The notes: generated by a model not told the origin, from the sequence alone. A stretch of 64,000 nt of DNA from Candidatus Hadarchaeota archaeon (GCA_964384105.1 CAYLJV010000001.1:32001-96000); one strand, 5' to 3'. Numbered from the stretch's first letter, positions 33,357-50,782 are shown. A program made the numbers and translations.

Positions 33357-33375
33357 TCTTTGGAAGTGTGTTCAA

Positions 33376-34473: not shown

Positions 34474-34483
34474 TAAATTAGTT

Positions 34484-35584
34484 TTATAGTATTTCGTAAG
34501 TAGTGGTTCGCTGTTTTGGTATCCTGTTTGAGTCTAAAATTATTTTTTCTAGCTGTTTTGGTGTCATCTCTTGTTTTTTTCCTCCTGCTGCTTTTGTTAT
34601 GTTTTCTTCCATTAGAGTTCCAGATAAATCGTTGGCTCCGGCGTTTAGCATTGCCTTGGCTATGTTCGGCCCGAGCTTTACCCAAGAAGTCTGTATATTC
34701 CGGATTTGATTGTTTAGCATTAACCTTGCAACTGAATGGATTTTGAAATGGTCTATTGTTGATATTTCATGGACAAGGTTCTCTAATTCTGTATTTTTAT
34801 TTGCAAAAGCTAGTGGGACTAGTTCGGTAAAACCGCTGGTTTCTTTTTGTATTTTTCTTATTTTAACTAGGTGCTCAGATATTTCTTTTGGGGTTTCTAC
34901 ATGCCCGTACATTATAGTAGCTGTTGTGGGAATTCCCAAGTGGTGACAGGATTTTATTGTCTCTTCCCATTTTCTTGCTTCGATCTTTTTAGGACAGATT
35001 ATTCTTCTTACTCTATTGACCAGTATCTCTGCTGCTGTTCCAGGTACGGAGTTCAGTCCATTTTCTTTTAGAATATTCAAAATCTTCTCTACTTTCTCGC
35101 CTTCTTTCTCTGCTATGTGGTTGATTTCTGCTGGAGAAAATGCATGAATATGGATACTTTCGGATACTTTTCTAACTGCTTCTAGAAATTCTACGTATTC
35201 TTTTAAGCCGAGAGAGGGGTTAATCCCTCCTTGCATGCATATTTCAGTGGCTCCTTTTTTTATCGCTTCCTTGGTTTTTTTCTTTACTTGCTTGGGGGTA
35301 AGTAGATAAGCTTCTTTATTATCTTCCGATCGATAAAAGGCGCAAAATTTACACTTATTATAGCAGATATTGGTGAAGTTTATGTTTCGATTGATTACGT
35401 AAGTTACAACATTGCCAACCGACTTTTTTCTTAGGTAGTCTGCGGCTTTAATTATCAGTCTAGTTTCATTTTCATTGGATTTTAGTAGTGTTTCACCGTC
35501 TTCTACATCAAGGTCCTCGCCCGCGAGAGCTTTTTCTATCACTCTTCCAATTTCTGGTTTTACTTTCCCGGTTAGTTTTTTCAA
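34484..35584 (-). CDS. cofH: FO synthase subunit 2 (radical SAM, CofH)
   Basis: VTYVINRNINFTNICYNKCKFCAF, PGTAAEIL, TTATIMYGHVET, FTELVPL, IQTSWVKLG, GANDLSGTLMEENI. Confidence 0.82.
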   Translation of the reverse strand: MKKLTGKVKPEIGRVIEKALAGEDLDVEDGETLLKSNENETRLIIKAADYLRKKSVGNVVTYVINRNINFTNICYNKCKFCAFYRSEDNKEAYLLTPKQVKKKTKEAIKKGATEICMQGGINPSLGLKEYVEFLEAVRKVSESIHIHAFSPAEINHIAEKEGEKVEKILNILKENGLNSVPGTAAEILVNRVRRIICPKKIEARKWEETIKSCHHLGIPTTATIMYGHVETPKEISEHLVKIRKIQKETSGFTELVPLAFANKNTELENLVHEISTIDHFKIHSVARLMLNNQIRNIQTSWVKLGPNIAKAMLNAGANDLSGTLMEENITKAAGGKKQEMTPKQLEKIILDSNRIPKQRTTTYEIL

Positions 35585-35718: not shown

Positions 35719-36975
35719 ATGACTTTGATAAGATCTGAAGAAGTTGGACGTAGATATGAAACGCCTCCTTTTCCCGATTTTCCAAAAAGCGAATGGAGAA
35801 GAAGAATAGATAGTGTCCAAGAACGGATGAAAGAAGAAGGGATAGATGTACTTGTTCTTTGGATGCGAGAGAATTGTAGGTACTTTTCGGGATTCCAATC
35901 TGTTCACTGGCTCACTGATATACATCCAGTGATAGATGTGATTCCTGTAGAGGGTGATCCCACTTTGATTGTTCCAGAGCTTTTCAAATGTAATGCTGAA
36001 GGTATATGTTGGGAACGGGATATCAGAGCTCAAAAGAAACCCCATAAACTCACGTCGATAAGAGAGCTTCCAAAAGATGTAGCTAGTGTAGTAAAGGATC
36101 GTGGTTACGAAAGTGCAACCATTGGTCTTGAAACTGGGTCTCTAGGTGGAATGTGGATACCTAGGCCTCTCAGCGATATAGAAGTTTTCAAGAATGAGCT
36201 ACCAGATGCAGACTTCGCTGATGCTGATCGAGTTATATGGGATTGTAGAATGATAAAATCCGCTTTCGAGATCGAGAGATTGAGAAGAGCATCCCAGGAT
36301 ATTGGAAGAGCTCTTACTCGGATAAGAGATGAATTCAGACCGGGTATGATGGAAAAAGATGTTCAAAATATATGGCTTGAAGAAGCTGCTATGGAGAATA
36401 TTCGAGGTGAAGATTCTTACGTCGGATCCCATATAGTCTGTGGATTGTCAAAGGAGGGAATGGCAGATGTTCTGGCCTTTGATAATATAACTATTGATAG
36501 TGACAGCTATCTATCTGTGGATTTATTCCAGAAGCACAAGGGTTACATACTTGATAGAGCAAGAACTTTCCAGGTGGGGTCTGTTTCGAAGGAAGTTGAA
36601 GAGGCCCACAGAGCCGTGAATGAAGGACTTGTGAATGCTGAAGAGATATTAGAACCAGGAATAAAGGCGAACGACATCTTTAAAGCTGCTTATGAACCAA
36701 TAGCAGAGATAGGTTACGATGAATTGGACATGGCAGGTCATGGAGTCGGTTATGTTATGCATGAACCTCCGTATATCACTGAAGAGAATGAGATGACAAT
36801 AAAAGAAGGAATGGTTTTATCCATAGAGCCATGGATTTGGGAACCGAAGGAGCAGGGAGGAATTGGAGTAATCGGAATTCAAGACAATTATGTGATTACA
36901 GACGATGGATACGAGATTTTGGATGAAAACCCGTCTATTTGGAAGTATAAGGTTGCCCATCCTTTTCGTGAATAG
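35719..36975 (+). CDS. M24 (creatinase/Xaa-Pro peptidase-like) hydrolase, paralogue 1
   Basis: Creatinase N-domain (ENCRYFSGF), RMIKS..E, D..(10)..D, GHGVG..HEPP, SIEP, GIQD. Confidence 0.88.
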   Translation: MTLIRSEEVGRRYETPPFPDFPKSEWRRRIDSVQERMKEEGIDVLVLWMRENCRYFSGFQSVHWLTDIHPVIDVIPVEGDPTLIVPELFKCNAEGICWERDIRAQKKPHKLTSIRELPKDVASVVKDRGYESATIGLETGSLGGMWIPRPLSDIEVFKNELPDADFADADRVIWDCRMIKSAFEIERLRRASQDIGRALTRIRDEFRPGMMEKDVQNIWLEEAAMENIRGEDSYVGSHIVCGLSKEGMADVLAFDNITIDSDSYLSVDLFQKHKGYILDRARTFQVGSVSKEVEEAHRAVNEGLVNAEEILEPGIKANDIFKAAYEPIAEIGYDELDMAGHGVGYVMHEPPYITEENEMTIKEGMVLSIEPWIWEPKEQGGIGVIGIQDNYVITDDGYEILDENPSIWKYKVAHPFRE

Positions 36976-37000
36976 TAAAACATCTATCCATAATTGACTC

Positions 37001-37030
37001 GAGTTCTTTCTTTATTTTTTTATTTTTTAG
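37001..37030 (+). terminator. Oligo-T archaeal terminator-like tract
   Basis: ttctttctttatttttttattttttag downstream of M24 paralogue 1, between convergent genes. Confidence 0.45.
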
Positions 37031-37174
37031 TAAATATTCAAGATTTAGTTTCTTTAAGCCAAGTGGATTCTCTAGAGGTCTAGATTTCCTTAGTTGTTAG
37101 AATGGTACTAAAATAATATTTTTCCTAAAAATTATGAAATAAAAAAGTAGGGGGAGAAGGTTAGTTGAAGGACT

Positions 37175-38506
37175 TTACTTGAGAGGTCCAACGACTCCTT
37201 CTACGAAGTAATCCATAGTAAGAAGGTGGTTTATAGAAGGCATTTCACCCTCTGGACTTTGTACGTTTCCGTCACGATCAACTACCTCTTGCATGAATGG
37301 GTCCCAAACTCCTCTTCTCATTTGTTCTCTTAGGTTAGAAACTTCTTCAACTACATCGTCTGCGACGTTGTCTCTCCAATGTGGTGAAATCGCGTTTGTC
37401 CCTACTCGTCCGTTTTGTCTGAGGTCACAGATACTCCGGTTGTCTATCTCTGTATATAGGATCTCGTCCATGCCTGGGAAGTGTATAGGCTGTGGATATC
37501 CTCCAGCGAGGTAATCTTTTAGGACTTCGTCTAGGATGACTTCCCAGCGCATTTCATAGCATACTGCTACTTCTTCTTCTGTTGCCCATCCTGCGCGAAC
37601 GTAGTCCAGAGATTTACCGATGAAGGGTATTCCGGCCTCGGAAGCGACTCTGACTGGTGACTGCGAGTCGGTTACTTCCCAGAGTACTGATACGTTTCTA
37701 TCTTCGATTAGGGTTGTTGCGAGTTCTCTTTCTGTTGTGGGGTTGAACCATTCACCAGACCAAAGTACATGAACTTCTGCTTCTGGATCTACGTGTCTTG
37801 CGCCCATTGTGAAGGCGTTTATGCGCCTATAATTTATGGATGCGGGCATTGAAGCTACACATCCTATTCTACCGTTGGGGGATAGAGAGCTTGCTATCAT
37901 CCCAGCTAAGTAAATGGCCTGATATTCCCTTCCATTTGCTCTGATGAAATTGTTCCCATACGGTTTATATGATCCGACAATTTCTGGAACAAAGTATACG
38001 TCTGGATATTGCTGGGAGAGTTCCTCTAATGCAAGTCCAATGTATTCTGCGTTACAGAATATTATGTCAGCTCCACTGTCTTCAATCATACTTGTTGCTA
38101 CATCCTCAACGTCTTCTACAGTCACAGATTCTCTGACTACGGTATTTAGCCAGGGATATTCGTTTTCCATCCACTTTCTTGCAGCGTCACAGGCGGTCGT
38201 CCAAGATTCTGGTCCGACCGGTGCATAGTAGATCCATCCCATAGTTATCTGGTCTTCACCGTCTCCTGTTGTAGCTAATTCATTGATTATACTTTGTGGG
38301 ATTGAGTTTTGCGCTATGTTTCGGATATCACTTTCAGACGCTTCTTGTAGGTAGTTCTGAACATCTGTACTGGTGACTTCTCCTTTTGCTCCACCGTCTT
38401 TGGGAGTTAGAGTGTAAGTCCCTACTCCAACAATTGCTGCAGTAATCACTACAGCAATGATGATTACTCCTGTTGTTGCTAGACCTCTTTTGTCTAGTCT
38501 TTTCAT
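37175..38506 (-). CDS. BMP (PnrA/Med-like) ABC substrate-binding protein, paralogue 1
   Basis: GWIYYAPVG..SWT, YLAGMIA, RINAFTMGA, WFNP..ERELA..L; N-terminal TM preceded by KRG. Confidence 0.9.
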   Translation of the reverse strand: MKRLDKRGLATTGVIIIAVVITAAIVGVGTYTLTPKDGGAKGEVTSTDVQNYLQEASESDIRNIAQNSIPQSIINELATTGDGEDQITMGWIYYAPVGPESWTTACDAARKWMENEYPWLNTVVRESVTVEDVEDVATSMIEDSGADIIFCNAEYIGLALEELSQQYPDVYFVPEIVGSYKPYGNNFIRANGREYQAIYLAGMIASSLSPNGRIGCVASMPASINYRRINAFTMGARHVDPEAEVHVLWSGEWFNPTTERELATTLIEDRNVSVLWEVTDSQSPVRVASEAGIPFIGKSLDYVRAGWATEEEVAVCYEMRWEVILDEVLKDYLAGGYPQPIHFPGMDEILYTEIDNRSICDLRQNGRVGTNAISPHWRDNVADDVVEEVSNLREQMRRGVWDPFMQEVVDRDGNVQSPEGEMPSINHLLTMDYFVEGVVGPLK

Positions 38507-38655
38507 TCTGTTCTCCTTTGTTGGTCTTTAGCTTATGTGCGCTGGCTTTTTAAAATATTTGAGTAGGGCTAAGTTTTCTATAGAAGTCTTAGTGAAGCGT
38601 ATAGGAAAATTTATAAATTCCTATCGTCACATAACCTCTTCGAGTTTAACGGTGG

Positions 38656-39789
38656 TTGCTTTTGTTATTAAAAAATAAAAACGATATAGAGGATTTTGTT
38701 CGAGGATGTACATTCTATGGAACTGGTGGTGGTGGGTCTCCGGCAAACGGATTGAGTATTCTAATGGATGCCTTTGAAGACAAAGGCGAAATTGAAGTCA
38801 AGGACCCATCCGAAATCGAGGATGATTCGTGGACAATTTGTGCATATGGTATGGGTTCCATAGCTCCGAGAACTTCCGAACAAAAGAAGGAAATGAAAAA
38901 TCTAGGTTTAGTTAAAGAAAAAATTCGTTATAAGCTAGTCGAAGCCGTGAAGGAATTTGAGGAATATACTGGCGAAAAAATTGGTTCAATAGTCCCATTG
39001 GAACTAGGTGGGATGAATACTCCTGCTCCAGTGGCTGCAGCAGTTAGACTTGGTATAGATGCGGTAAATGGAGATTATGCAGGAGGTAGAGCGATCCCGG
39101 AGGTTGTTCAGACGATGCCTCACATACATGGAGAGAGAATGAGTCCTTTGGTAAGTGTTGATCAGTGGGGTGATAAGGTAATAATCAAGGAGTCGATAAA
39201 CAACGAAGTTGCTGAAAAGATAGGCAAACTAGTTTCCAATCTTACTTATGGAGAGCTCGCAGGTAATGCTACTTATCTTATCAAAGGAAGTAGAATGAAA
39301 GACTTAGTAGTACCTGATACTTTAAATGAAGCTCTTGAAGTAGGGCGTGCAGTTAGATTAGCTAGAGAAGAAAATGAAGACGTAGTGGAATCTATTGTCG
39401 AATCTACTGGTGGTTATCTGTTATTTGAAGGCGAGATAACTGAAAAGGATGACTACGACAGGGAAGGTTACTACTGGGGTACTAATACTGTTAAAGGAAC
39501 AGGAGAATTTGAAGGCAAGGAATTCAAGTGTTGGTTCAAAAACGAAAACCATGTTTCTTGGTTAGATGGCGAACCATACGTTACTAGTCCGGACTTCATG
39601 ACATTCGTCGATTCTAGTACTGGAGAACCATATACCAATACAGAAATTAAACCAGGAATGGAAATGAGTGTGATAGGTATTAAATCGCACGAAAGCTTCC
39701 GGAAAAAAGAGGCAATAGAGGTTCTTGGTCCCAGGCACTTTGGTCATGATATTGAGTATGTGCCGATAGAGAAGAAAGTCAAAAAATGA
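38656..39789 (+). CDS. DUF917 family protein (thiohydantoin desulfurase-like)
   Basis: GCTFYGTGGGG, ELGGMNT, GDYAGGRAIPEV, FKNEN, SPD. Confidence 0.87.
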   Translation: MLLLLKNKNDIEDFVRGCTFYGTGGGGSPANGLSILMDAFEDKGEIEVKDPSEIEDDSWTICAYGMGSIAPRTSEQKKEMKNLGLVKEKIRYKLVEAVKEFEEYTGEKIGSIVPLELGGMNTPAPVAAAVRLGIDAVNGDYAGGRAIPEVVQTMPHIHGERMSPLVSVDQWGDKVIIKESINNEVAEKIGKLVSNLTYGELAGNATYLIKGSRMKDLVVPDTLNEALEVGRAVRLAREENEDVVESIVESTGGYLLFEGEITEKDDYDREGYYWGTNTVKGTGEFEGKEFKCWFKNENHVSWLDGEPYVTSPDFMTFVDSSTGEPYTNTEIKPGMEMSVIGIKSHESFRKKEAIEVLGPRHFGHDIEYVPIEKKVKK

Positions 39790-39969
39790 GTCTAGATTTT
39801 CATCCTTCACTTTTTTCTATTTTTTCTTGGGGTTCTCATAGACTATTTTCAATCTAGAAAAGGTATTGATTAAAAACATATATACTATCAAAACCGCTAT
39901 TTAGTAAAGGATTGCCTCCAAATTGTTGGAAACGGCTAGAGATGAGTGAAATAAGGAGAGTTGGATTAA

Positions 39970-41487
39970 ATGGAATCCGATGAGTATATCTTTGAAATGA
40001 GGAATATTACGAAAAGGTATCCCGGGGGAGTACTTGCTAATAAGAACGTAGATTTTAATGGAAAGTTAGGTGAGATTCATGCTCTGGTGGGGGAGAACGG
40101 TGCGGGAAAGACAACTTTAATGCATATTCTTTCTGGATTGTATAAACAGAACGAGGGAGAGATTTACGTTGATGGGGAAAAGGTCAATATAAAGTCCCCA
40201 AGGGAAGCTCTTAAACATGGGATCGGAATGGTCCACCAAGAGAGATTTCTTATTCCCGCTCATTCTGTGATAGAGAATATAGTACTCGGAGCTCCAGAGG
40301 GCTGGAAGCCTGATAAGAAAAAGGTAAAGAAACAAGCCGAAGAGATCTGCAAAAAATATAATTTGAAATTGGATTTAGATGCGAAGATTAGCGAGCTTTC
40401 AGCTGGAGAGAAACAACTGGCAGAGATTTTGAAGGTATTGTATCTAGATACTAATATAGTCATACTGGATGAGCCTACTTCCGTCTTGACTCCTGAAGAG
40501 ACAGAAAGATTTCTTGGGTCTATTAAGAAGATGGCTGAAGAAGGAAATGTCTGTATAGTTTTTATATCTCATAAGCTTCCGGTTGTTCTGAATATTAGTG
40601 ATCGTATAACTGTTCTTAGGGGAGGCGAGATAGTAGGGACTACGACTCCTGAAGAGAGCTCGCTTAAGGAACTCTCTAAGATGATGGTGGGCCGAGAAGT
40701 TCTTATGGATTTGGAGAGGGAGACTCAAGAGTCCGGGGAAGTAATACTCGAGCTCGAGAATATTTCCGCTAAAAATGATCGTGGTATAGAGGCTCTAAAG
40801 GATGTTTCTTTGGAAGTTCGGGAAGGTGAGATTTTGAGTATTGCTGGGGTTTCTGGTAATGGACAAGGTGAGTTGATGGAGGTAATAATGGGTTTAAGGA
40901 AACCTACTAAAGGAAAAATTATTTTTAGAGGTGTAGATGTTACCAATCTCTCAGTACAGGAAAGATGGAAAAAAGGCCTAGCTTATATTCCGTCAGAAAG
41001 GGTTGAGGTTGGGGTAATAGAAGAGTATAACTTAGTAGATAACGTCTTAATGTGTTTTTACCACGACGAAAGATATTGTAATCGAGGGGTATTGGACTAC
41101 AGTAAGTTGGGAGAAATTACAGAGAAATTCATTTCAGAATATAAAATAAAGGCGGAGGGTACTGACACACTTGTTGGTCACTTGTCTGGTGGGAATATCC
41201 AGAAACTTATCTTAAGCAGAGTTCTGGCAAGAAATCCAGATTTGTTGCTTGCGGAAGATCCTACCCATGGACTCGATGTAGCATCTATGGAGTTTGTGCG
41301 TAAGAAGCTTCTTGAGTTGAGACGTAATGGAAAAGGAGTTTTACTTGTTTCTAAAGATCTCGATGAGGTTATATCTATAAGCGATAGAATAGCTCCAATT
41401 TATGAAGGTGAAATCATGGGAGTTGTCTCTGCTGAGGATGCTACCAAGGATAAAATTGGTCATATGATGATGGGTGAAAAAGAATAA
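39970..41487 (+). CDS. ABC transporter ATPase, CUT2/nucleoside type (two NBDs)
   Basis: GENGAGKTT, LSAGEKQ, ILDEPT, ISHKL, GVSGNGQ, LSGGNIQK. Confidence 0.95.
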   Translation: MESDEYIFEMRNITKRYPGGVLANKNVDFNGKLGEIHALVGENGAGKTTLMHILSGLYKQNEGEIYVDGEKVNIKSPREALKHGIGMVHQERFLIPAHSVIENIVLGAPEGWKPDKKKVKKQAEEICKKYNLKLDLDAKISELSAGEKQLAEILKVLYLDTNIVILDEPTSVLTPEETERFLGSIKKMAEEGNVCIVFISHKLPVVLNISDRITVLRGGEIVGTTTPEESSLKELSKMMVGREVLMDLERETQESGEVILELENISAKNDRGIEALKDVSLEVREGEILSIAGVSGNGQGELMEVIMGLRKPTKGKIIFRGVDVTNLSVQERWKKGLAYIPSERVEVGVIEEYNLVDNVLMCFYHDERYCNRGVLDYSKLGEITEKFISEYKIKAEGTDTLVGHLSGGNIQKLILSRVLARNPDLLLAEDPTHGLDVASMEFVRKKLLELRRNGKGVLLVSKDLDEVISISDRIAPIYEGEIMGVVSAEDATKDKIGHMMMGEKE

Positions 41488-41504
41488 TTTGAGATATAGA
41501 TAAA

Positions 41505-42545
41505 ATGAGGCTTGTAAGAAAATTAAAACAGTCATCTACATCTACTCTGGCCATTTCTCTTATTTCTTTGGCTATTTCTATTGGGATTTTTAGTATCATT
41601 TTTTGGGGTGCTGGAATTAATATTCTGGACGGTTATTCTGAACTATTAAAATCTGGTTTTACAGGAGGAGGTTTGAATACAACTATCAGAAGGACTGGAA
41701 CTTTATTCCTTTTGGCTTTAGCTTTCATAATACCAAATAAAGCCGGATTGTGGAATATAGGAGGACAAGGACAATTCTTTTTGGGGATAATAGGTGCAGC
41801 AGGAATTTCTTATGCTTTTTCCGGTATGTCTGGCTATTTACTTATTCCAATAATGGCAATAGCTGCTATGGTAACAGGGGGAATCTGGGGTCTAATTCCA
41901 GGATATTTGAAAAGTAAGTTAGATGTTAATGAAATTGTTGTTTCACTAATGCTTAACTATGTTGCGATTCAGTTAGTAAACTATCTAGTGGTTCGTGGTC
42001 CTTGGATGTCGCCGTCAGGAAGACCAGAAAGTATGCCGATCCCTGAGCAAGCGCATATGCCTATGATTGGGGGGACGAGCATTCCTATTTCTATAATTGT
42101 TCCGATTGTGGCTTTGATAGTTTTCTTCTTTGTCTTCAAGAAAACTCGCTTGGGTTATGAAATTACCACGATAGGATCTAAATTTAGATCTGCGAGATAT
42201 GCAGGCATAAGCCATACGAAAATATATTTGTTTACCATGGTTATAGGAGGAGCTTTAGCTGGTTTTGCAGGGATGTCTCATTTAACCGCTGTAACTGGCT
42301 TCTTTAGATCTAATATTATTCCTCCGTGGGGTTATTACGCTATTGTTTTTGGTTTGTTTGTAGGTTTAGATTTGGTTTCGGCTTTACTCTACACATTCAT
42401 AATTACTGGTTTCTTAGTAGGAACCAAAGCTCTTCAGATAACTTTTGGTATGCACCATGGCATCAGCCTTTTATTTGTGGGATTGATAATTGTTGTCAAC
42501 ATTGCTCTCCAAGTATTCCGAGAGTACAATATTAAGAGGTCATGA
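41505..42545 (+). CDS. ABC permease (nucleoside-type, BPD_transp_2)
   Basis: GLWNIGGQGQ, VNEIVVSLMLNY, TRLGYE, ARYAGI. Confidence 0.92.
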   Translation: MRLVRKLKQSSTSTLAISLISLAISIGIFSIIFWGAGINILDGYSELLKSGFTGGGLNTTIRRTGTLFLLALAFIIPNKAGLWNIGGQGQFFLGIIGAAGISYAFSGMSGYLLIPIMAIAAMVTGGIWGLIPGYLKSKLDVNEIVVSLMLNYVAIQLVNYLVVRGPWMSPSGRPESMPIPEQAHMPMIGGTSIPISIIVPIVALIVFFFVFKKTRLGYEITTIGSKFRSARYAGISHTKIYLFTMVIGGALAGFAGMSHLTAVTGFFRSNIIPPWGYYAIVFGLFVGLDLVSALLYTFIITGFLVGTKALQITFGMHHGISLLFVGLIIVVNIALQVFREYNIKRS

Positions 42546-42555
42546 AGGTGGATAT

Positions 42556-43431
42556 ATGGTAGCAGTAGCAAGTACAATCACTATGATACTTCAGTCTTCC
42601 ATTATCTTCCTACTTCCCGCTTTAGGTGAGCTATACAGCCAGAGAGGTGGAATACTAAATATCTCTTTAGAAGGCTTAATGCTCACAGGTGCTTTGGTTT
42701 CCGTTGCAGTTGCAGTTACAACTTCAAATGTATGGTTGGGCATTATTGGTGGAATGGCTGCGGCGGGTTTACTTGGTTTTTTCCACGGTTTCCTGTCAAT
42801 TTCTTGTAAGGTTTCACAAGTGGCAAGTGGATTGGGTATATGGCTATTTGCTATTGGTTTTACTACATATTTAGGGAAACCTTTTGAAGGGCCTGTTAGA
42901 TTTACAATACCTAAAATTGCCTTTGGCCTTACTCCGATTTTCTTTATAGCGATAGCTTTAGTTCCTGTATTTTGGTTTATTCTAAACAGGACTAGTTTTG
43001 GAATAGGAGTTAGATCCGCGGGTGAGGACCCTTTGATTGCAGAAGCTTGGGGTGTTAATGTTACTAAGGTTCGATATGTTGGAGTTATTGTTGGTGGTCT
43101 TCTAGCTGGCTTGGCTGGTGCTTATCTTTCTTTGTCTTATACTAGTTTGTGGTCTCCGGGAATAACAGGGGGCCGTGGTTGGATAGCTCTTGCTCTTATA
43201 TTCTTCTCGTTATGGAGTTCTCGGATTCTAATATTCAGTTCGCTATTTTATGGAGTGTTGTGGGTGGCTACCTTTAAACTACAACTGTCTCTTCCAGGGA
43301 TTAATGTGGCGATACTTCAGGCTTTACCTTTCGTAGTAGTGATTATTGCTTTAACTGTTATCAAACTCGGAAGGTTTGGAATGGAACAGGCAATGCCTGC
43401 GTCCTTAGGTGAACCATTCATAAAGGAATGA
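42556..43431 (+). CDS. ABC permease (nucleoside-type), second subunit
   Basis: ALGELYSQRGGILNISLEG, RSAGEDP, GRGWIALA, MPASLGEPF; ATG at 42556 is the likely start. Confidence 0.92.
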   Translation: MVAVASTITMILQSSIIFLLPALGELYSQRGGILNISLEGLMLTGALVSVAVAVTTSNVWLGIIGGMAAAGLLGFFHGFLSISCKVSQVASGLGIWLFAIGFTTYLGKPFEGPVRFTIPKIAFGLTPIFFIAIALVPVFWFILNRTSFGIGVRSAGEDPLIAEAWGVNVTKVRYVGVIVGGLLAGLAGAYLSLSYTSLWSPGITGGRGWIALALIFFSLWSSRILIFSSLFYGVLWVATFKLQLSLPGINVAILQALPFVVVIIALTVIKLGRFGMEQAMPASLGEPFIKE

Positions 43432-43517
43432 TTTTCTAAAGTCTTTGTCTCTTGGTTATTGCCATAGACGCAGAATTTATATCTAATAGACAATCATTAT
43501 CTGCAATAGGTAATAAC

Positions 43518-44762
43518 ATGGTAATAAAGAAACCAGGTAGAACTTATTACAAAAAACCCGTTTTCCCAGATTTTCCAAAAAGTGAGTGGGAATCTAGAAT
43601 CGACAAGGCACAAGAGATAATGTCCGACAGTGACATAGACTGTTTGTTAGTTTGGCAGAGAGAAAATGTGAGATATTTCTATGGCTTCCAGACAATACAT
43701 TGGTATCTTAAGAGTCTTCAGCCCGGAGTAGGTATAATTCCTGCTGAGGGAGAGCCTACTTTGGTAGTACCTGAACTGTTTCAGGGAAATGTTGAAGGTC
43801 TTTGTTGGTTAGATGATATTAGGGTACAAGAAGACCCGCATCAGCCAAAAGTTCAGCGAGAACTACCCAAAGAAATTGCAGAAATAGTTAAAGAAAAGGG
43901 CTATGGAGATGGAAACATTGCCCTAGAAAAAGGTCCTCTTGGATGTACTTGGATTCCGAGGCCGTTGAACGATATTGAGACGCTTAAGAATTCCTTGCCA
44001 GATGCGAATTTTGTTGATGGCGACAAAGTTATTTGGGGCTGTAGAATGATAAAGAGCCCATTGGAACTAGAGAGAATTAGAAAATCTATTAATGGAATAA
44101 AGAAAGTGCAAGCTGCTATTGTTGAGCAGTATCGACCAGGAATGATGGAAGAGGACATACAGAAGATAATTGACAGGACTAGAGCTGAATTGGAAGGTAA
44201 CTCGCTAGGACATGATGGAGTTTCTTGGGAACACTTTATCGCAGGAACGAAAAAACAGTCGTTTGCTGACATAAAGGCTTTGGAAGGTGCTACCATAGGA
44301 AAGAACGATCCTATCCAGTATGATGGCGCTTTCTACTACAAAGGCTACTGTCCGGATAGCGCGAGAGTATGGCAAGTTGGTCCAGTAACGGAGCAAATAG
44401 AAGAATACTATAGTATAATCTTTGAAGGTGAGGATAACGTCGAAGAGATGTTGCGTCCGGGAGTCAAGGCTAACGAAGTTTACGAAGCTATGTACAAGCC
44501 AATAAAAGATAGAAATCTTAAAGGCCTAGACATGGGTGGTCATGGTACCGGGATGGATACTCATGAACCCCCCTCGATAGATGAATGGAATGAACAGAAG
44601 ATAGAAGAGGGAATGGTTCTTTCTATTGAGCCTTGGTTAGTTTCCGACGAAGGAGTATTGTTCGGAATACAGGATACTTTCGTCGTCACTAGAAATGGCT
44701 GTGAGAAAATTGAGGCCCTTAACAGAGATATTAAACAAGTCTATCATCCATATACCTACTAG
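43518..44762 (+). CDS. M24 (creatinase/Xaa-Pro peptidase-like) hydrolase, paralogue 2
   Basis: Collinear with 35719 protein (FPDFPKSEW..RID, WIPRPL.DIE, CRMIKS); D..D, GHGTG..HEPP, SIEPW, GIQD; ATG at 43518 is the likely start. Confidence 0.88.
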   Translation: MVIKKPGRTYYKKPVFPDFPKSEWESRIDKAQEIMSDSDIDCLLVWQRENVRYFYGFQTIHWYLKSLQPGVGIIPAEGEPTLVVPELFQGNVEGLCWLDDIRVQEDPHQPKVQRELPKEIAEIVKEKGYGDGNIALEKGPLGCTWIPRPLNDIETLKNSLPDANFVDGDKVIWGCRMIKSPLELERIRKSINGIKKVQAAIVEQYRPGMMEEDIQKIIDRTRAELEGNSLGHDGVSWEHFIAGTKKQSFADIKALEGATIGKNDPIQYDGAFYYKGYCPDSARVWQVGPVTEQIEEYYSIIFEGEDNVEEMLRPGVKANEVYEAMYKPIKDRNLKGLDMGGHGTGMDTHEPPSIDEWNEQKIEEGMVLSIEPWLVSDEGVLFGIQDTFVVTRNGCEKIEALNRDIKQVYHPYTY

Positions 44763-44774
44763 GAGGTGTGAGTT

Positions 44775-45749
44775 TTGGAAAATTTAGGTGTAGTGTTTCC
44801 CGGTGATTATCCTAGTAATAAGGTAGTAAAACAGTCTAAGTTTATAGATAAGAAGGGATTGGATTCGGTCTGGGTTATAGAGGATTATTTCTTCAGAGCT
44901 TCTTTCCCGTTAGCGGGAGCTGTTATGGCAAATACTGAAAACGTTAAAGTGGGAGTAGGTTGTCCCAATGTCTATACAAGGACCCCTGCTCTGACAGCTA
45001 TGTCTGCTGCTACGGTCGACGAGATTTCGAGTGATCGATTTATTTTGGGATTAGGTGCCGGCGTAAAAGGTTGGATCGAACAGCAGGGTATCGAGTGGAA
45101 CAAGAATCTTGGTAGAGTGCGAGAGTTCATTGATGTAGTTAGGAAGATTTTAGCTAACGAAAAGGTAGATTATTCGGGTGACTTCTATACAGCGAAGGAT
45201 ATAGAACTCGAGTTTGAACCACCCAGCAAAAAGATTCCGATCTATATAGCCGCTATGGGTCCCAAAATGACGCAGCTTTCAGGAGAGATTTCAAATGGTG
45301 TGCTTTTGTCAGTATGTACTCCGGCAGAATGGCTAGATGTTGTTAAACAAAACTTGGAGAAAGGTGCGAAGAGATCAGGAAAATCTTTGAATGATATTAA
45401 TATAGCGTCTTACATCCTCGTTTCGATGTCAGAGGACCGGAAAAAAGCGATGGAGAAAGTGAAGCCAATGATAGCTTTCTATCTATCTTTGCCAATATTC
45501 GATGCTATTCTCGAAGACATCGGAATGACTGATGAAGTTGCACCTGTAAGTGAGGCCTATTCAAAGGGAAACAAAGAAGAAGCTTTTGAGTATATGACAG
45601 AGGATATCATTGATACATTTGCCGTGGCCGGAACACCTGAAGAATGTAGAGAAAAGTTAGAAGGATTCGTAGAAGCTGGAGTAAACGAGCCATTGGCTTG
45701 GCCCATAATGGATGTAAAAGAAATGGTAAACGGGTTAGCAGAGGATTAA
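44775..45749 (+). CDS. LLM-class (Mer-like) probable F420-dependent oxidoreductase
   Basis: NVYTRTPALTAMSAATVDEIS.DRFILGLGAG, IPIYIAAMGPKM, AGTPEEC; SD GGAGGTG at 44762. Confidence 0.87.
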   Translation: MENLGVVFPGDYPSNKVVKQSKFIDKKGLDSVWVIEDYFFRASFPLAGAVMANTENVKVGVGCPNVYTRTPALTAMSAATVDEISSDRFILGLGAGVKGWIEQQGIEWNKNLGRVREFIDVVRKILANEKVDYSGDFYTAKDIELEFEPPSKKIPIYIAAMGPKMTQLSGEISNGVLLSVCTPAEWLDVVKQNLEKGAKRSGKSLNDINIASYILVSMSEDRKKAMEKVKPMIAFYLSLPIFDAILEDIGMTDEVAPVSEAYSKGNKEEAFEYMTEDIIDTFAVAGTPEECREKLEGFVEAGVNEPLAWPIMDVKEMVNGLAED

Positions 45750-45793
45750 TTTCCTCTCACTTCTTTTTTATTTTTCAGTTTGATTGTGGCAGT

Positions 45794-46114
45794 TTATTTT
45801 TCTCCAGGATACTTTATCTCTTCGCCGAAGAATGCTTTGCTTTCACCGATGTATTCGCTCCACTGCTCCAATAATTTTTTAGCTTCTTCTGATTCTAGGT
45901 CTTTCTTGTAATTTTCCGAGTTGGTTATTTTTATGTGTTCGATGTAATCGTAGGGAACTTCATTCTGTAGACTCTCTGTTATCCGATAGACTCTATAGAA
46001 TATTATAGAATCGATTTTCCGAGCAATGGAGTAATCAGATTCTTTTACCCATTTTTCATAATCCTTTTGTTTTGCGTCGTCCTTTAGTTTGGTCAAGAAA
46101 AAAGTTGCAGACAT
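45794..46114 (-). CDS. REDY-like/HapK (EthD-like dimeric alpha-beta barrel) protein
   Basis: LKD....DYEKWV.ESDY and PYDYIE motifs; 106 aa. Confidence 0.72.
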   Translation of the reverse strand: MSATFFLTKLKDDAKQKDYEKWVKESDYSIARKIDSIIFYRVYRITESLQNEVPYDYIEHIKITNSENYKKDLESEEAKKLLEQWSEYIGESKAFFGEEIKYPGEK

Positions 46115-46285
46115 TTTATCTGCTTCTTAAGAAGGGACATATTTTTAATAAGTTTTTGGTTTTGATTTGTTTGATTTTAAATTTTGATACTCGCAACTTT
46201 CGTAAAAAGTCAGCTCTGTTTTTGTATCATTATATCTATGTTAATAAAAAAGAAAAAAGGAAGAAAGAAAAAAGTCAAAGCCTAC

Positions 46286-47644
46286 CTATTGTAGTGATCC
46301 GACGACTCCCTCTACGAAGTAATCCATAGTTAGTAGGTCTTCTCCAGATGGCATTTCTCCTTCTGCGCTTCTTACATTACCGTCTCTATCTACTACTTCC
46401 TGAATGAATGGGTCCCAAACTCCTGTTCTTAGCTGGTTTCTGGTGGCAGTAATTTCGTCGATTACATCCTGCGGAATTTCATCTATCCAATGAGGCGAAA
46501 TCGCGTCTACACCTATCCTATCGTTTTGTCTTAGATCGGTAACACTTATCCTATCGCTTTCTCCGGCGTATAGTGATTCACTCATTGTGGGGAAATGTAT
46601 TGGTTCTGGATCTCCGCCTCTCAAGTAGTCTTTTATTACTCGGTCCAATATTATTTCCCAACGTGACTCGTAGCTAACAGCTACTTCTTCGTCAGTCGCC
46701 CATCCTTCTCGAACATAGTCCAAAGATTTACCTATGAAAGGTATTCCGGCATCAGAAGCCACTCTGACTGGTGACTGTGAGTCGGTTACCTGCCAAAGTA
46801 CTGATACTTCCCTGTCTTCGACTAGTGTCGTTGCTAGTTCTCTTTCTGCCGTTGGGTTGAACCATGATCCTTCCCAGAGCACGTGAACTTCTGCTTGTGG
46901 GTTCACGCTTCTTGCTCCCATGGTGAATGCATTGATTCTTCGGTAATTCAATGAGGCGGGCATTGATCCGACACATCCAATTTTGTCGTTAGTGGCTAGT
47001 GAACCAGCTATCATGCCAGCAAGATAGATAGCTTGGTATTCCTTGGGGAATGCTCTAATGAAGTTGTTTGGGACATCAGCCATTCCTCCATGTGGCTCGA
47101 ATTGCCCGACAATTTCAGGAACGAAATATACGTCGGGGTAGTCTGCTGATATTTCTTCTAGTGGAAGACCAATATATTCTGCATTGCAGAATATTATGTC
47201 GGCGCCACTGTCTTCAATCATACTCTTTGCTACATCTACAACATCTTCTACTGTTACAGATTCCCTAACTACTGAGTTTATTTCTAATGGATAGTTACTT
47301 TCCATCCAAGTTCTAGATGCGTCACAAGCGGTCGTCCAGGATTCAGGTCCTACTGGTGCATAGTAAATCCATCCGAGTGTTAGTTCTTTGGTACCGTTTC
47401 CAGTTGGTGTGGCCAGTTCGTCTATTATGCTTTGTGGGATTGAATTTTGGGCTATATCTCGAACGTCGGTTTCTGATGCTCCCTGCAAATAATTCTGAAC
47501 GTCTGATTTGTTGACTTCTCCTTCTGCTCCTCCGTCTTTGGGAGTTAGAGCGTAAGTTCCTACTCCAACTACTACTGCTGTAACTATCACTGCTATTACA
47601 ACAACGCTAATGGTAGCTAATCCTCTTTCGCTAAATTTAATCAT
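46286..47644 (-). CDS. BMP ABC substrate-binding protein, paralogue 2
   Basis: Closely collinear with the 37175 protein; SD tcacctcc at 47647-47654 supports ATG at 47644. Confidence 0.9.
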   Translation of the reverse strand: MIKFSERGLATISVVVIAVIVTAVVVGVGTYALTPKDGGAEGEVNKSDVQNYLQGASETDVRDIAQNSIPQSIIDELATPTGNGTKELTLGWIYYAPVGPESWTTACDASRTWMESNYPLEINSVVRESVTVEDVVDVAKSMIEDSGADIIFCNAEYIGLPLEEISADYPDVYFVPEIVGQFEPHGGMADVPNNFIRAFPKEYQAIYLAGMIAGSLATNDKIGCVGSMPASLNYRRINAFTMGARSVNPQAEVHVLWEGSWFNPTAERELATTLVEDREVSVLWQVTDSQSPVRVASDAGIPFIGKSLDYVREGWATDEEVAVSYESRWEIILDRVIKDYLRGGDPEPIHFPTMSESLYAGESDRISVTDLRQNDRIGVDAISPHWIDEIPQDVIDEITATRNQLRTGVWDPFIQEVVDRDGNVRSAEGEMPSGEDLLTMDYFVEGVVGSLQ

Positions 47645-47780
47645 TATCACCTCCTTAAAACTGCAATACTAACCTATTAGCTCGTTATACGTTATATATT
47701 TATAACTTACTCAGCAAGCTGTATATTTCAATAAATTAAAAAATAAGCTTTATTGCTACTCAAATAGCGAAAATAAGCTT

Positions 47781-48752
47781 TTAGAAATCAATCTTCCATT
47801 TTCCATCTTTAATTATAGTTTCTCTATCTAGTTTGAGTGTTGGATTTGATATTATACAATCTATGTGAATATTGCTTTTTTGCTTTCCACCCATGTGGGA
47901 GTTATCTCCAAATGCTATATGAACGGTTCCCATTATCTTTTCATCTATTAACATACTTCCCATAGGTTCTGCTTGTGGGTTTGTTCCTATTCCCAACTCA
48001 GCTATTTTATTCGAGTTCGTATCACCGGCTTCTTTGAGCATTTTCTTGAGCGTATTTGCTTCAGTACCTCCGATTATTTCAGTGGCTGAACCGCTCTCGA
48101 TTTTACATTCGACTGTCTTTGAGAGTTTTCCGATTGTTGTGATAACTGTATCTATTATGATTTTTCCTTTTCCAGTGTTTTCAACAGGTGCTATGTATGC
48201 TTCTCCAGCTGGTAAATTTCCGAAATCACCTTTATTTCTTAGTATTCCTGAATCAGAAATTCCAGTTCTACCTTTAAGGTTTAATACTAATTCGGTACCT
48301 ATTTCCGTTTTTATTTTTGCTTCCTTACTTTCGGTAAGTTTTTTTGCTAGTGCGTCTGACCGCGATTTTATTTTTTTATAGTCCGCTTTCATAGGTCCCT
48401 TTATCATTTCCTTGGTTATTCCCGGCATAGAAGCAACTCTTGCTCCTTCTCTACACGCTTCTTCTCTGGCTTGGGTGTGGGATAAGGATTTGGTAGTGGG
48501 TATTAGTATCACGTCGGCGTTTTTCATAGCGGCAGCTACTGTTTTCGGCGGTTCGTTTCCATCAAGTTTTCTCGGTTTTATTATACTGAGAATTGTCTCA
48601 GCTCCTAGGCTGGAGGAGACCTCTGCAAATGAGTTTGCTATTGAGACTCTTTCGGAATCTCCTATAATTAGCACTTCTTCTGTGGGCTTAACGCCAAGAC
48701 AGGTCTCAAGAGCGATTCTTATTCCTTCAAGATGGTCAAATTCTCCAATCAA
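47781..48752 (-). CDS. M29-like (aminopeptidase T/thermophilic metalloprotease) family protein
   Basis: NLPAGEAYIAP, IAELGIGTNP, DEKIMGTVHIAFGDN, HID. Confidence 0.85.
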   Translation of the reverse strand: MIGEFDHLEGIRIALETCLGVKPTEEVLIIGDSERVSIANSFAEVSSSLGAETILSIIKPRKLDGNEPPKTVAAAMKNADVILIPTTKSLSHTQAREEACREGARVASMPGITKEMIKGPMKADYKKIKSRSDALAKKLTESKEAKIKTEIGTELVLNLKGRTGISDSGILRNKGDFGNLPAGEAYIAPVENTGKGKIIIDTVITTIGKLSKTVECKIESGSATEIIGGTEANTLKKMLKEAGDTNSNKIAELGIGTNPQAEPMGSMLIDEKIMGTVHIAFGDNSHMGGKQKSNIHIDCIISNPTLKLDRETIIKDGKWKIDF

Positions 48753-48871
48753 TTTCCTTCCTCTGTTTTTTTCTCATATTTTCTTAATAAAATTCTTTGT
48801 CTAGCTGAGATGAGGGTCAGTCGGTTAACAAAATATTTATTAGAAAAGGAGGAAGTTATCTTAGAGTTCCA

Positions 48872-50770
48872 ATGAGTTTTGGCTGTATTAATGGGAAGTA
48901 TGTTGACATTGATCTTAGTAACGGTAGTGTCAGCGAGAGAAATATTGATAAATCCCTTATAGAAGATTATTTGGGCAGCAGAGGAATAAACGCAAAGATA
49001 CTTTGGGAAGAGACGGATGAGGATACGGATCCCCTCGGCCCAGATAATGTCTTGATAATTTCTCCTGGGATATTGGCTGGTACGGGGGCTCCAGTTGGAA
49101 GATTAACTGTAACTGCGCTGAGTCCTGCTACTGGGATATACTTGAAGAGTAGCGTAGGTGGAACTTGCGGTGGACCGATCAAAAGAAACGGTTGTGATGG
49201 TATTGTGTTCAAAGGTAAGGCCGCCGATCCGAAGTATTTGTTGATAGATGACGGCAAGGTTGAAATTAAATCTGCCGAACATCTTTGGGGAAAAGATGTG
49301 AGAGAGACTGTAGAGACCTTGAAGGATGAATTGGGTGATGATACAGAAGTTGCTTGTATAGGTCCGGCTGGAGAGAATGAGGTTAAGATTGCTTCTATCA
49401 TGTTTAATACGTATCACGCTGCAGCTAGGGGTGGAATTGGAGCGGTTATGGGTTCAAAGAATTTGAAAGCAATTTGCGTAAGGGGGGGAGACGAGAAGAT
49501 AGAGATCCCCGACCCCGAGAAATTCAATGAAGTAAGGAAAGAGATGGTACGGGGCATTTTGGAGGATTCATCTTATGAGAGTCTGTCAGAGTTCGGAACT
49601 CCTGGTTTGGTTCCGGCGGTGAATGAGATAGGGGCTATTACGGCTTATAATTTTAGAGAAGGTAGCTTTGAAGGTGCCTACGAGTTAGGAGGACAATACA
49701 TAAAGGAGAATTACTCCTCCAAGATGTATGCTTGTGAGAGATGTCCGATTGGATGTCATCTCTTTACCGAGTTTAAAGATGGTCTTTCTGGAGGGCCGGA
49801 GTATGAGACTCTGCTTTCCCTGGGTATTGGTACAGGAGTTGGGGATACAGAAACTGTTTTGAAAGCTAATGAGCTTTGTAACATTTACGGTCTAGATACG
49901 ATATCAACTGGTGGGGTTATCCAATGGGCTATGGAGAGTTACGAAAATGGAGTACTTTCAGATGAGGAGACGGACGGTCTCGAACTTAACTTCGGTAATG
50001 GAGGAGTGGTTATCGAATTAATTAATAAAATAGCTAATAGGGAGGGCATTGGGGATTTGCTTGCCGAAGGTACGAAAAGAGCTTCTGAGAGAGTTGGGAA
50101 AGGCTCGGAGAAGTGGGCAGTTCAGTCCAAGGGATTGGAACAGTCTAGAGTTGATACGAGAGCTGCAAAGAGTTATGCTTTGGCGTTTGCTGTTAATCCG
50201 AGGGGGCCAGATCATCTTCATACTGAGTGTCTCGCAGAATTTGGAACTACACAGGAGATGGTTGACCTTATCGAAAAAATTACAGGCGACAAAAAATACG
50301 CAAATCCGTATACTATAGAGAAAAGGCCTGAGATAGTCAGGTGGCACGAGGACTGTTATGGTGCAACTGATGCTTTAGGTTTCTGTGCATTCTATACTAC
50401 TTTCCTATACGGAGTTACTCCGGATAATATGGCGAGGATGTTTGAATATGCCACAGGAATCGAGATGGATGAGGATAAGATTATGGAGGCTGGCAGGCGA
50501 ATTGTTACGCTTGAAAATTGCTACAACATCAGATTGGGGATTGATAGAAAGGATCATAGACTCCCATGGAGATTAATGAACGAGGAAACTGAAAAAGAGG
50601 AAGCATCGGCTAATACAGAAGAAGAATTAAAGGAAATGTTGGATGGGTATTTCAAACTTCACGAGTGGGATGTTGAAACAGGAAAACCTACTGCTGAAGT
50701 CCTAGAGAAACTTGATATGAAAGAAGTTGGTGAAGAACTTCTGGAAAAAGGTTTGATTTCTGAGAAATAA
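48872..50770 (+). CDS. aor: Tungsten-dependent aldehyde:ferredoxin oxidoreductase family enzyme
   Basis: SPATG, CIGPAGEN, AARGGIGAVMGSKNLKA, CERCPIGC, GPEYET, GLDTIS, RGPDHL, DALGFC. Confidence 0.92.
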   Translation: MSFGCINGKYVDIDLSNGSVSERNIDKSLIEDYLGSRGINAKILWEETDEDTDPLGPDNVLIISPGILAGTGAPVGRLTVTALSPATGIYLKSSVGGTCGGPIKRNGCDGIVFKGKAADPKYLLIDDGKVEIKSAEHLWGKDVRETVETLKDELGDDTEVACIGPAGENEVKIASIMFNTYHAAARGGIGAVMGSKNLKAICVRGGDEKIEIPDPEKFNEVRKEMVRGILEDSSYESLSEFGTPGLVPAVNEIGAITAYNFREGSFEGAYELGGQYIKENYSSKMYACERCPIGCHLFTEFKDGLSGGPEYETLLSLGIGTGVGDTETVLKANELCNIYGLDTISTGGVIQWAMESYENGVLSDEETDGLELNFGNGGVVIELINKIANREGIGDLLAEGTKRASERVGKGSEKWAVQSKGLEQSRVDTRAAKSYALAFAVNPRGPDHLHTECLAEFGTTQEMVDLIEKITGDKKYANPYTIEKRPEIVRWHEDCYGATDALGFCAFYTTFLYGVTPDNMARMFEYATGIEMDEDKIMEAGRRIVTLENCYNIRLGIDRKDHRLPWRLMNEETEKEEASANTEEELKEMLDGYFKLHEWDVETGKPTAEVLEKLDMKEVGEELLEKGLISEK

Positions 50771-50782
50771 AGATTTGAAGAA

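Follow-up and report, generated by a model that had tools for sequence, protein, structure and literature searches.

A lineage-specific import-and-catabolism island in a Hadarchaeota archaeon, put together from modules that are widespread on their own

Operons for hydantoin utilisation (hyu) carry an NCS1 permease, a hydantoin racemase, a hydantoinase and an N-carbamoyl-amino-acid amidohydrolase. We analysed an island of import and catabolism genes that can be compared with these operons. It lies in a 64,000-nucleotide stretch of a Candidatus Hadarchaeota archaeon (GCA_964384105.1 CAYLJV010000001.1:32001-96000), which is referred to below as the window and corresponds to contig C1:32001-96000 of genome G000, an assembly of 1.62 Mb that is 90% complete. 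The island combines a DUF917 gene with a CUT2-type ATP-binding cassette (ABC) importer and its BMP binding proteins, two M24 hydrolases (M24a and M24b), a luciferase-like oxidoreductase (LLM), a HapK-like protein, an M29/NicX-like metallohydrolase and an aldehyde:ferredoxin oxidoreductase (AOR). Relatives of the DUF917 protein occur together with NCS1, an Asp/Glu/hydantoin racemase and a metallohydrolase (M29-like or M20), and the logic of this arrangement is that of hyu, with DUF917 in place of the amidohydrolase-superfamily hydantoinase. The window departs from hyu further: it has a BMP/CUT2 importer plus AOR, LLM and M24 genes, and it contains neither a racemase nor NCS1, both of which were also undetected in the whole genome with queries from locus L045 of a DHVE2 archaeon.

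The two-domain DUF917 architecture is shared with the thiohydantoin and S-methyl-thiohydantoin desulfurases (NF058529, NF058532); unlike these enzymes, the window protein scores far below the curated cut-offs, the upstream enzymes of their pathway were not found, and the gene partners are different. In a study of cyclodipeptide oxidases (CDO), DUF917, hydantoin racemases, Dpp transporters and peptidases were enriched around CDO-like genes (bioRxiv 10.1101/2023.09.25.559410); the passages of that study that describe these neighbourhoods name neither AOR nor M24. CDO-like clusters without a cyclodipeptide synthase are the commonest context of the window's DUF917 type. Unlike them, the window's genome shows no DUF6092 (tblastn, L045 query), its nitroreductase matches (29-34% identity) lie elsewhere in the genome, and it has no second DUF917. 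A further relative is AorABC of Aromatoleum aromaticum, a bacterial tungsten aldehyde oxidoreductase from phenylalanine-grown cells (PMC6365974; bioRxiv 10.1101/2023.01.23.525143), the published account of which, in its passages on AorABC, deals with a phenylalanine context and not with DUF917. Bacterial members of the AOR orthogroup of the window have the same Fer4 and FAD (Pyr_redox_2) partners and a ThiS/MoaD-like gene; unlike AorABC, the window AOR has no Fer4 or FAD partner nearby, as judged by Pfam.

Scans of the gene calls at 35719-47644 and onward with Pfam and NCBIfam recovered all the genes that an earlier reading of the DNA (the sequence-only reading) had named, each where it had been placed, and no family of helix-turn-helix proteins or other regulators was matched within 35719-47644, in agreement with its remark that a regulator is missing (Table 1). 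DUF917, the ATPase, the two permeases, M24b and LLM look like one operon, because they lie on the same strand with short gaps (180, 17, about 10, 20-86 and 12 bases). BMPa and DUF917 are divergent with a spacer of 149 bases, and so are the M29-like gene and AOR with a spacer of 119 bases. We compared 270 related loci in all (numbered L below), fetched via DUF917, M24 and AOR anchors, together with the 66 species genomes available for the phylum. Pairs of these families recur across many phyla, which indicated that the grouping is more than chance. The locus is a genuine import-and-catabolism island, as the sequence-only reading had supposed. Among the 66 phylum genomes, the DUF917 type of the window was found in one (paralogues of 33-34% identity in three others) and the BMP subfamily in four, and none of 40 relatives had an M24b orthologue (best match 29%). 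The island is thus lineage-specific; its modules are widespread on their own. The base composition of the region is unremarkable. The sequencing runs listed for the sequence were DNA runs, microbial-mat metagenomes from a single study, one of which may be its source, and no RNA run was among them. The enzyme set as a whole is not described in the literature searched; a transporter-linked catabolic island for a nitrogen-rich compound is a known kind of system. In the passages on DUF917 (PF06032) in the literature, no tie of DUF917 to AOR or M24 was found.

Our confidence is evenly divided on the reading that we prefer, in which the island imports, reduces and hydrolytically ring-opens an N-heterocycle, AOR oxidises an aldehyde product and the Glu/Leu/Phe/Val-type amino-acid dehydrogenase (GDH) encoded next to it deaminates an amino-acid product. 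Gene content, layout, recurrence of pairs and the type of binding protein are observed. From them we infer the substrate and the chemical steps with their order, taking as models hydantoin utilisation and routes that reduce, hydrolyse and then oxidise an aldehyde, of which nicotinate fermentation is an example. The BMP/CUT2 importer, served by two local BMPs and a third encoded elsewhere, would take up a flat N-heterocycle, a compound related to purine bases, hydantoins or ureides and other than guanine or adenine. The LLM would reduce a C=C or C=N bond with F420H2, at a position where bacteria would use an FMN_red flavoprotein. DUF917 and the M29/NicX-like metallohydrolase may then open the ring and cleave amide or ureido bonds, and the two M24 hydrolases, perhaps with HapK, may add to or extend this hydrolysis. 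A tungsten AOR with its MoaD-like partner would convert an aldehyde to the acid with reduction of ferredoxin, and GDH would deaminate the amino-acid product.

The double-domain ATPase, two BPD_transp_2 permeases and a Bmp domain identify the importer as a BMP/PnrA-type CUT2 system (Pfam). BMPa is 73% identical to BMPb, and the three BMP paralogues of the genome are 73-76% identical to one another. The third paralogue (C1:673085-674446, L225:9085-10446; 75-76% to BMPb) stands alone between genes for a CCA-adding enzyme and a LigT-like protein, with no transporter beside it. This subfamily is rare, with 28 representative clusters at E <= 1e-30 among 1.84 billion and a best non-self match of 46%; its gene context is known from genomes G034 and G000 and from incidental matches only. 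The BMP profile matched AtzT (6pi5, E 1.3e-42) and 3s99 (E 6.5e-41), compared with E 2.9e-7 for the nucleoside binder TmpC (2fqw) and 6.6e-8 for TpN38(b) (4iil). In AtzT, Tyr45 and Trp194 form an aromatic sandwich, Ser97, Glu165, Asn218 and Asn220 are hydrogen-bonding residues, and the affinities are 110 nM for guanine and 2.2 µM for 2-hydroxyatrazine (PMC6834077). By profile alignment, which is not a structure, the sandwich positions of the window BMPs are invariant Trp (W103 and W261, 8/8 sequences), and the four hydrogen-bonding positions are changed to Asn, Leu/Ile, Val and an invariant Asp, respectively. AtzT and 3s99 are thus the best solved relatives, with the aromatic sandwich of AtzT kept; unlike them, the window BMPs belong to a rare subfamily, are about 90 residues longer and have an N-terminal membrane anchor and a linker. 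We read the probable BMP ligand as a flat ring other than guanine or adenine. The sequence-only reading had proposed a nucleoside- or nucleobase-type importer; the nucleobase-binding type stands, and the nucleoside part gives way, since the proteins are closer to purine-base binders than to nucleoside binders. An orthologous importer is present in G034 (same order), with 55% identity for the ATPase, 46% and 53% for permeases 1 and 2, and 41-44% for the BMP; there (L222, G034:C88:1-15254) it stands beside a three-subunit molybdenum enzyme like xanthine dehydrogenase (XDH), FdrA, AllG, two CoA-transferase subunits and a cyclase.

The DUF917 protein scored 139.9 and 181.5 bits with PF06032 and PF20906, both over the gathering scores, and homologues of 49-60% identity occur in many phyla. 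An alignment of 26 homologues yielded 79 loci from species genomes, the partners in which were identified by tblastn with window proteins, clustering of open reading frames (ORFs) and Pfam. The commonest were Dpp-type ATPases (44/79), the M29-like hydrolase (35, of which 25 by tblastn at a coverage of at least 50%), Dpp permeases (32), SBP_bac_5 (31) and the Asp/Glu/hydantoin racemase (30), followed by the CDO-like nitroreductase (18), DUF6092 and the NCS1 permease (11 each) and M20 peptidases (7). This 'A-type' DUF917 usually adjoins a transporter; by tblastn, no HapK, no BMP and no M24 of subfamily level was found at the 79 loci. A compact form of the locus is present in L045, in L014 and L063 from Thermoplasmata, and in L004 and L059: after this DUF917 type come NCS1, a small protein and the racemase, and opposite them are two more DUF917 genes and those for the M29-like protein, the nitroreductase and DUF6092. 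Two features of this context are retained in the window: the DUF917 gene immediately precedes an importer, and an M29-like partner is present. A structure model of the DUF917 protein (pLDDT 93.7) matched the uncharacterised 2o3i with Z 38.5 and a root-mean-square deviation of 2.4 Å over 334 aligned residues. No other fold was returned by Foldseek and VIA-align, the next match being a CbiG/CobE-like domain at Z 5.6, within the noise range of the tool. In an archaeal record (L022:3079-4665), two DUF917 genes flank that of a short hydantoinase-A-like ATPase.

The M29-like protein, 47% identical to the L045 copy, matched only positions 183-405 of 406 in the M29 profile. Its single PDB match was NicX (7cn3, E 5.5e-12), with the C-terminal His-x-Asp aligned, and no classical M29 peptidase was among its PDB matches at E <= 0.01. 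At one aligned position it has a Glu where NicX has a His that we take to be an iron ligand. NicX needs O2, and the gene content of the island points to an anaerobe. On these grounds, a hydrolase appears more likely than a dioxygenase. NicX and its relative Hpo have an AmpS-like domain and no aminopeptidase activity (PMC3831237); these 2,5-dihydroxypyridine dioxygenases cleave a pyridine ring, showing that such a domain can act on an N-heterocycle and not on peptides.

M24a and M24b are 48-49% identical and belong to one subfamily. They scored 94.9 (M24a) and 80.7 bits with PepQ (NF040821, cut-off 630) and 55-83 bits with DoeA (TIGR02993 and NF038259, cut-offs 575 and 613; M24a 78.4 vs 613), and M24a is below every NCBIfam cut-off. 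The fifth ligand of the prolidase metal site (Asp, Asp, His, Glu, Glu) is Gln in both proteins, with the other four kept; across 30 subfamily members this position is Gln in 20, Glu in 8 and Gly in 2. Among solved structures, the M24 profile matched the archaeal prolidases 1wy2 and 1pv9 best (E 1e-38), and no creatinase is among the 60 PDB matches listed for it, although the Creatinase_N domain is shared. The pair is therefore predicted to be atypical but without a creatinase-like loss of the metal site. M24b homologues of 60-66% identity came from metagenomes, and the ESM Atlas gave only generic M24 cluster names. An ordinary prolidase-like M24 is also encoded in the genome, at C1:531 kb.

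We fetched 111 M24 loci (33 from genomes and 78 from metagenomes), 97 of which had a subfamily match of at least 37% identity. An FMN_red gene (PF03358) was within 3 kb of M24 in 32 of these 97 loci; of the 42 loci flanked by 1 kb or more on each side, 22 had it. A gene for a small DUF6506 protein followed M24 in nine of the 97 loci, an LLM was present in three and a HapK-like gene in one; tandem M24 pairs are common (e.g. L146, L168, L176), and importers of several kinds stand beside M24, among them a BMP/CUT2 system in L163. These results indicated that the M24 pair is a separate module with FMN_red, and that LLM, and perhaps HapK, occupy the position usually held by FMN_red and DUF6506. The proposal of the sequence-only reading that M24 enzymes replace the usual hydantoinase was thus not borne out: M24 forms its own module and meets DUF917 in a single M24 locus. 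The module of M24 (often two tandem copies), FMN_red and DUF6506 can be seen at L146:9168-12735, L163:9953-12249, L168, L159, L201 and others; a search for literature on DUF6506 found none.

The LLM is Mer-like and below the cut-offs of the Mer families (233.5 vs 276 bits for NF002619, 226.6 vs 348.7 for TIGR03555). Its ten best NCBIfam matches are all F420 classes, FMN-dependent groups reaching at most 62 bits. In a set of 5.8 billion proteins, no relative came closer than 39-41% identity, and the best match among the loci is 42% (L105); AOR-linked archaeal LLMs are among these nearest relatives. CofG (424 bits), CofH (455) and CofE (274.6 and 223.6) are encoded in the genome, all over their cut-offs, and the host is accordingly predicted to make F420. 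The earlier assignment of this LLM to the F420 class is supported by both the family matches and these genes.

The window AOR scored 247.6 and 392.8 bits with AFOR_N and AFOR_C, both over the cut-offs, and is 49-55% identical to the DUF917-adjacent AORs of L041, L042, L078 and L105. When aligned and used for a scan, these four AORs retrieved 80 loci, the partners in which were called by tblastn, clustering and Pfam. Records titled Lutispora saccharofermentans, Clostridium thermobutyricum and Moorellaceae AZ2 are among the carriers of the AOR-DUF917 operon. The window protein is 48-58% identical to the AORs of 79 loci from bacteria and archaea and 78% identical to that of a Hadarchaeota record (L226), compared with at most 36% to its eight paralogues in G000 (nine AORs in total); the record titles carry about 11 phylum-level labels. 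Fer4 (70/80) and DUF917 (55) were the commonest partners, followed by LLM (32, mostly directly adjoining AOR), FMN_red (32), the CUT2 ATPase (29), the racemase (23), Pyr_redox_2 (22), class I/II aminotransferases (19), a ThiS-family gene beside AOR (at least 17), PfkB (16), IclR and KDPG/KHG aldolase (14 each), CUT2 permeases (11-12), class V aminotransferases and Flavin_Reduct (10 each), BMP (8), M29-like (2) and M24 (1). The sequence-only reading had noticed AOR and set it outside its cluster; that exclusion does not hold, since AOR is the best-conserved partner.

In L226 the 78% AOR orthologue and a MoaD gene stand beside a CUT2 importer, Amidohydro_1 and a carbamoyltransferase; L226:2-1090 holds a gene fragment like MtmB, of the monomethylamine methyltransferase family, beside the carbamoyltransferase and amidohydrolase. 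A long conserved bacterial operon was also found at this orthogroup (L289:793-15868 and L292, both Clostridium records, L228 and L274). Its order is IclR, KDPG/KHG aldolase, PfkB, class I/II aminotransferase, Flavin_Reduct, DUF917, CUT2 importer (with Peripla_BP_4 or Bmp), AOR, Fer4, FMN_red, ThiS, Fer4, Pyr_redox_2 and an aldolase of HpcH/HpaI or DHDPS type. Three different families of pyruvate aldolases thereby recur in this operon.

The closest overall parallel to the island is L105 (also fetched as L242) from Bathyarchaeia, with LLM (42%), an amino-acid permease, M24 (61%), Fer4, AOR (52%), ThiS and DUF917 (33%). In L244 and L267, AOR stands with ThiS, an M29-like gene (42-43%), an alanine dehydrogenase and an ELFV dehydrogenase; an ELFV dehydrogenase is also present in L236, which like L267 combines AOR, DUF917, ThiS and M29. 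L244 and L267 mirror the right-hand side of the island, and for this reason we extended the unit to AOR, MoaD and probably GDH, that is, probably to about 35719-53170. The HapK-like protein matched PDB 2jdj (E 4.2e-8), and in L145 its counterpart is beside a 64% M24 homologue and FMN_red.

Several results weigh against the preferred reading. The full gene set of the island is in none of the 270 loci, and DUF917, M24, LLM and HapK, the combination singled out by the sequence-only reading for co-occurrence, were found together nowhere else; HapK-like genes recurred in L145 only (1/270), and DUF917 was present in 1 of the 97 M24-subfamily loci (L105). Among DUF917 proteins at least 42% identical to that of the window, only 5 of 88 have an AOR within three genes, and most AOR-adjacent DUF917 proteins are of a different subtype (<36% identical). 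The importers most often found with this DUF917 type are Dpp systems of the peptide type. About one third of the AOR loci are from Thorarchaeota and share one layout, so that the partner counts overstate independence, and the bacterial AOR-DUF917 operons contain PfkB, KDPG/KHG aldolase, an aminotransferase and, in some cases, a binding protein of the sugar type. Neither this DUF917 subtype nor the M24 subfamily nor the AOR orthogroup has a known biochemical function.

Among the rival explanations, salvage of peptides or diketopiperazines is in our view unlikely. Here, DUF917 would open a cyclic dipeptide or lactam, M24 and the M29-like protein would act as a prolidase-like enzyme and an aminopeptidase, and GDH and AOR would ferment the amino acids set free, as happens in other archaea that ferment peptides. 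The prolidases at the head of the M24 profile matches and the four conserved metal ligands fit this scheme, as do the Dpp importers (31-44 of the 79 DUF917 loci), the seven loci with M20 peptidases, the nine AORs of the genome, the GDH beside the island and the glycine-cleavage genes upstream of it; in addition, the nitroreductase and DUF6092 partners are CDO-like, and their characterised relatives oxidise cyclic dipeptides. However, the BMPs resemble purine-base binders and not peptide binders, both M24 proteins are far below the PepQ cut-off with Gln as the fifth ligand, a prolidase-like M24 is already present elsewhere in the genome, and the M29-like protein matches NicX, which, like Hpo, was described as lacking aminopeptidase activity. 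Quite unlikely is a route for a sugar acid, an amino sugar or a hydroxy-amino acid, in which the imported compound would become a 4-hydroxy-2-oxo acid, an aldolase would split this into pyruvate and an aldehyde, AOR would oxidise the aldehyde and DUF917 would act early. CUT2 is classically a carbohydrate importer family, and the PfkB, IclR, aminotransferase, KDPG/KHG and HpcH/HpaI or DHDPS-type aldolase genes of the AOR loci, together with GlcD/GlcF-like pairs and the sugar-type Peripla_BP_4, argue for such a route, with which the bacterial operons are also compatible, be it for a sugar acid or a hydroxy-amino acid. In the window, no such aldolase, PfkB/FGGY kinase or aminotransferase was matched among the ORFs at 29340-54694 (Pfam, NCBIfam), the BMPs are of the base-binding type, and the racemase, NCS1 and M29/NicX-like partners point to ring amides.

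A chance patchwork, with importer, M24, LLM and AOR of unrelated functions brought together in a rearranged accessory region, would explain why synteny with the five congeners is absent around CofH and why the parts differ in their evolutionary partners. It is very unlikely, given that the pairings of AOR with DUF917, LLM and CUT2/BMP, of DUF917 with M29 and of M24 with a redox partner have each turned up independently in lineages far apart, and that DUF917, the importer, M24b and LLM lie in what looks like one operon. The sequence-only reading had favoured a thio-heterocycle that is imported, reduced, desulfurised by DUF917 and ring-opened by M24, and this we now consider the least probable of all. 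The known thiohydantoin route ends in glutamate, which a nearby GDH would suit, and the characterised (S-methyl-)thiohydantoin desulfurases share both Pfam domains with the window protein and are its only NCBIfam matches. The scores, however, are 64.3 bits against a cut-off of 440 (NF058529) and 46.1 against 450 (NF058532). Histidine ammonia-lyase (HAL)/ergothionase (PF00221) and urocanase (PF01175), the families of the upstream ergothioneine enzymes, had no match in the 90%-complete genome, whereas control genomes matched. Moreover, no sulfur-handling gene was matched in the island by Pfam and NCBIfam, the 270 loci gave no partners indicating sulfur chemistry, and M24 is almost never beside DUF917.

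Table 1. Genes of the island in the window, with positions counted from the first nucleotide of the window.
Gene	Position	Strand	Description	Basis
M24a	35719-36975	+	Creatinase_N + Peptidase_M24	Pfam
BMPa	37175-38506	-	Solute-binding protein, membrane-anchored, rare long BMP subfamily	Pfam Bmp, 78.7 bits
DUF917	38656-39789	+	'A-type', S-Me-THD_N + S-Me-THD_C; apparent first gene of the operon	Pfam
ATPase	39970-41487	+	CUT2-type ABC ATPase, two ABC domains	Pfam, NCBIfam
Permease 1	41505-42545	+	CUT2 permease, BPD_transp_2	Pfam
Permease 2	42490-43431	+	CUT2 permease, BPD_transp_2	Pfam; ATG at 42556 probably the true start (translation)
M24b	43452-44762	+	Same M24 subfamily as M24a	Pfam; likely start 43518, 22 codons later, where the 414-amino-acid database version begins
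LLM	44775-45749	+	F420-class luciferase-like oxidoreductase; apparent last gene of the operon	Pfam, NCBIfam
HapK-like	45794-46114	-	HapK/REDY-like small alpha+beta protein	Pfam, 52.7 bits
BMPb	46286-47650	-	Second binding protein, subfamily of BMPa	Pfam
M29-like	47781-48752	-	M29/NicX-like short metallohydrolase	Pfam M29, only C-terminal half of profile
AOR	48872-50770	+	Aldehyde:ferredoxin oxidoreductase family	Pfam
MoaD	50783-51073	+	MoaD/ThiS-like small protein, coupled to AOR	Pfam, NCBIfam
GDH	51974-53170	-	Glu/Leu/Phe/Val-type amino-acid dehydrogenase; probable, not certain, island member	Pfam

The borders of the island could not be set by synteny, because the five congeners share none of its neighbours: CofH is present in all five (51-61% identity), the window neighbours are beside none of these copies, and GDH was found in 0/5 at E <= 1e-40. 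Directly upstream, 29340-35584 holds glycine-cleavage genes (T, P-alpha and P-beta), a gene for an FrhB-like F420-reactive iron-sulfur protein and CofH. Between MoaD and GDH, on the minus strand at 51062-51967, there is a gene for a 301-amino-acid protein without a Pfam match and with weak NCBIfam likeness to the ADP-dependent serine kinase SerK (84.7 bits vs a cut-off of 380) and the regulator/kinase SbnI. None of the FrhB-like, GcvT, CofH, SerK/SbnI-like and DHH genes recurred in the 270 related loci, and these flanking genes were therefore left out of the island. The idea that the FrhB-like protein passes ferredoxin electrons to F420 for LLM likewise gained no support from recurrence. A search for a shared operator motif across ten intergenic regions gave one 11-mer, present in the BMPa/DUF917 spacer and upstream of BMPb; we rejected it as an operator, about three such matches being expected by chance over 45 pairs by our estimate.

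Outside the window, a 60-kb region of the same contig (C1:364001-424000) contains four CUT2 importer gene groups, four AOR paralogues and four Amidohydro_1 genes, and further Amidohydro_2, M20, arginase-family, cyclase, AllG, two class III aminotransferase, RidA and electron-transfer flavoprotein genes and a NiFe hydrogenase module. Three of the four importer stretches also have an AOR, and C-N hydrolases are near all four. An importer with a C-N hydrolase and an AOR looks like a repeated theme of this organism.

Within the preferred reading of an N-heterocycle that is reduced and ring-opened, we tentatively put forward a more specific and rather doubtful proposal: the island, like the widespread AOR-DUF917-flavoprotein operons, may encode an anaerobic pathway, so far undescribed, for a ring that derives from a purine or ureide (for example xanthine, urate or allantoin, or an intermediate of the imidazolone or hydantoin kind). 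The ring amidohydrolases of this route would be DUF917, the atypical M24 pair and the M29/NicX-like protein, F420H2 or a flavoprotein would provide the reduction, and an aldehyde of the glyoxylate type would be oxidised by a tungsten AOR dedicated to the route, with the electrons kept as reduced ferredoxin. To our knowledge, genes for such ring amidohydrolases have never been assigned. Hints of this route are the importer orthologue beside XDH-like and AllG genes and the closest AOR orthologue beside an amidohydrolase and a carbamoyltransferase; a further hint is that some members of the aldolase families that recur in AOR loci condense pyruvate with glyoxylate or catalyse the reverse cleavage.

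Homologues of DUF917, of the M24 subfamily and of the AOR orthogroup number in the hundreds, each of the three is widespread among anaerobes of both bacteria and archaea, and the link between AOR and DUF917 extends over about 11 phylum labels. The literature searched assigns no substrate to any of the three in these contexts. The window unites the modules behind one importer, the binding proteins of which can be expressed and screened and so offer a practical way to find out what all these modules act on. Should this be a ring of the purine or ureide type, the island would be relevant to the fermentation of nitrogen-rich heterocycles in the absence of O2, and to the question of what is oxidised by the numerous AOR paralogues in uncultured archaea.

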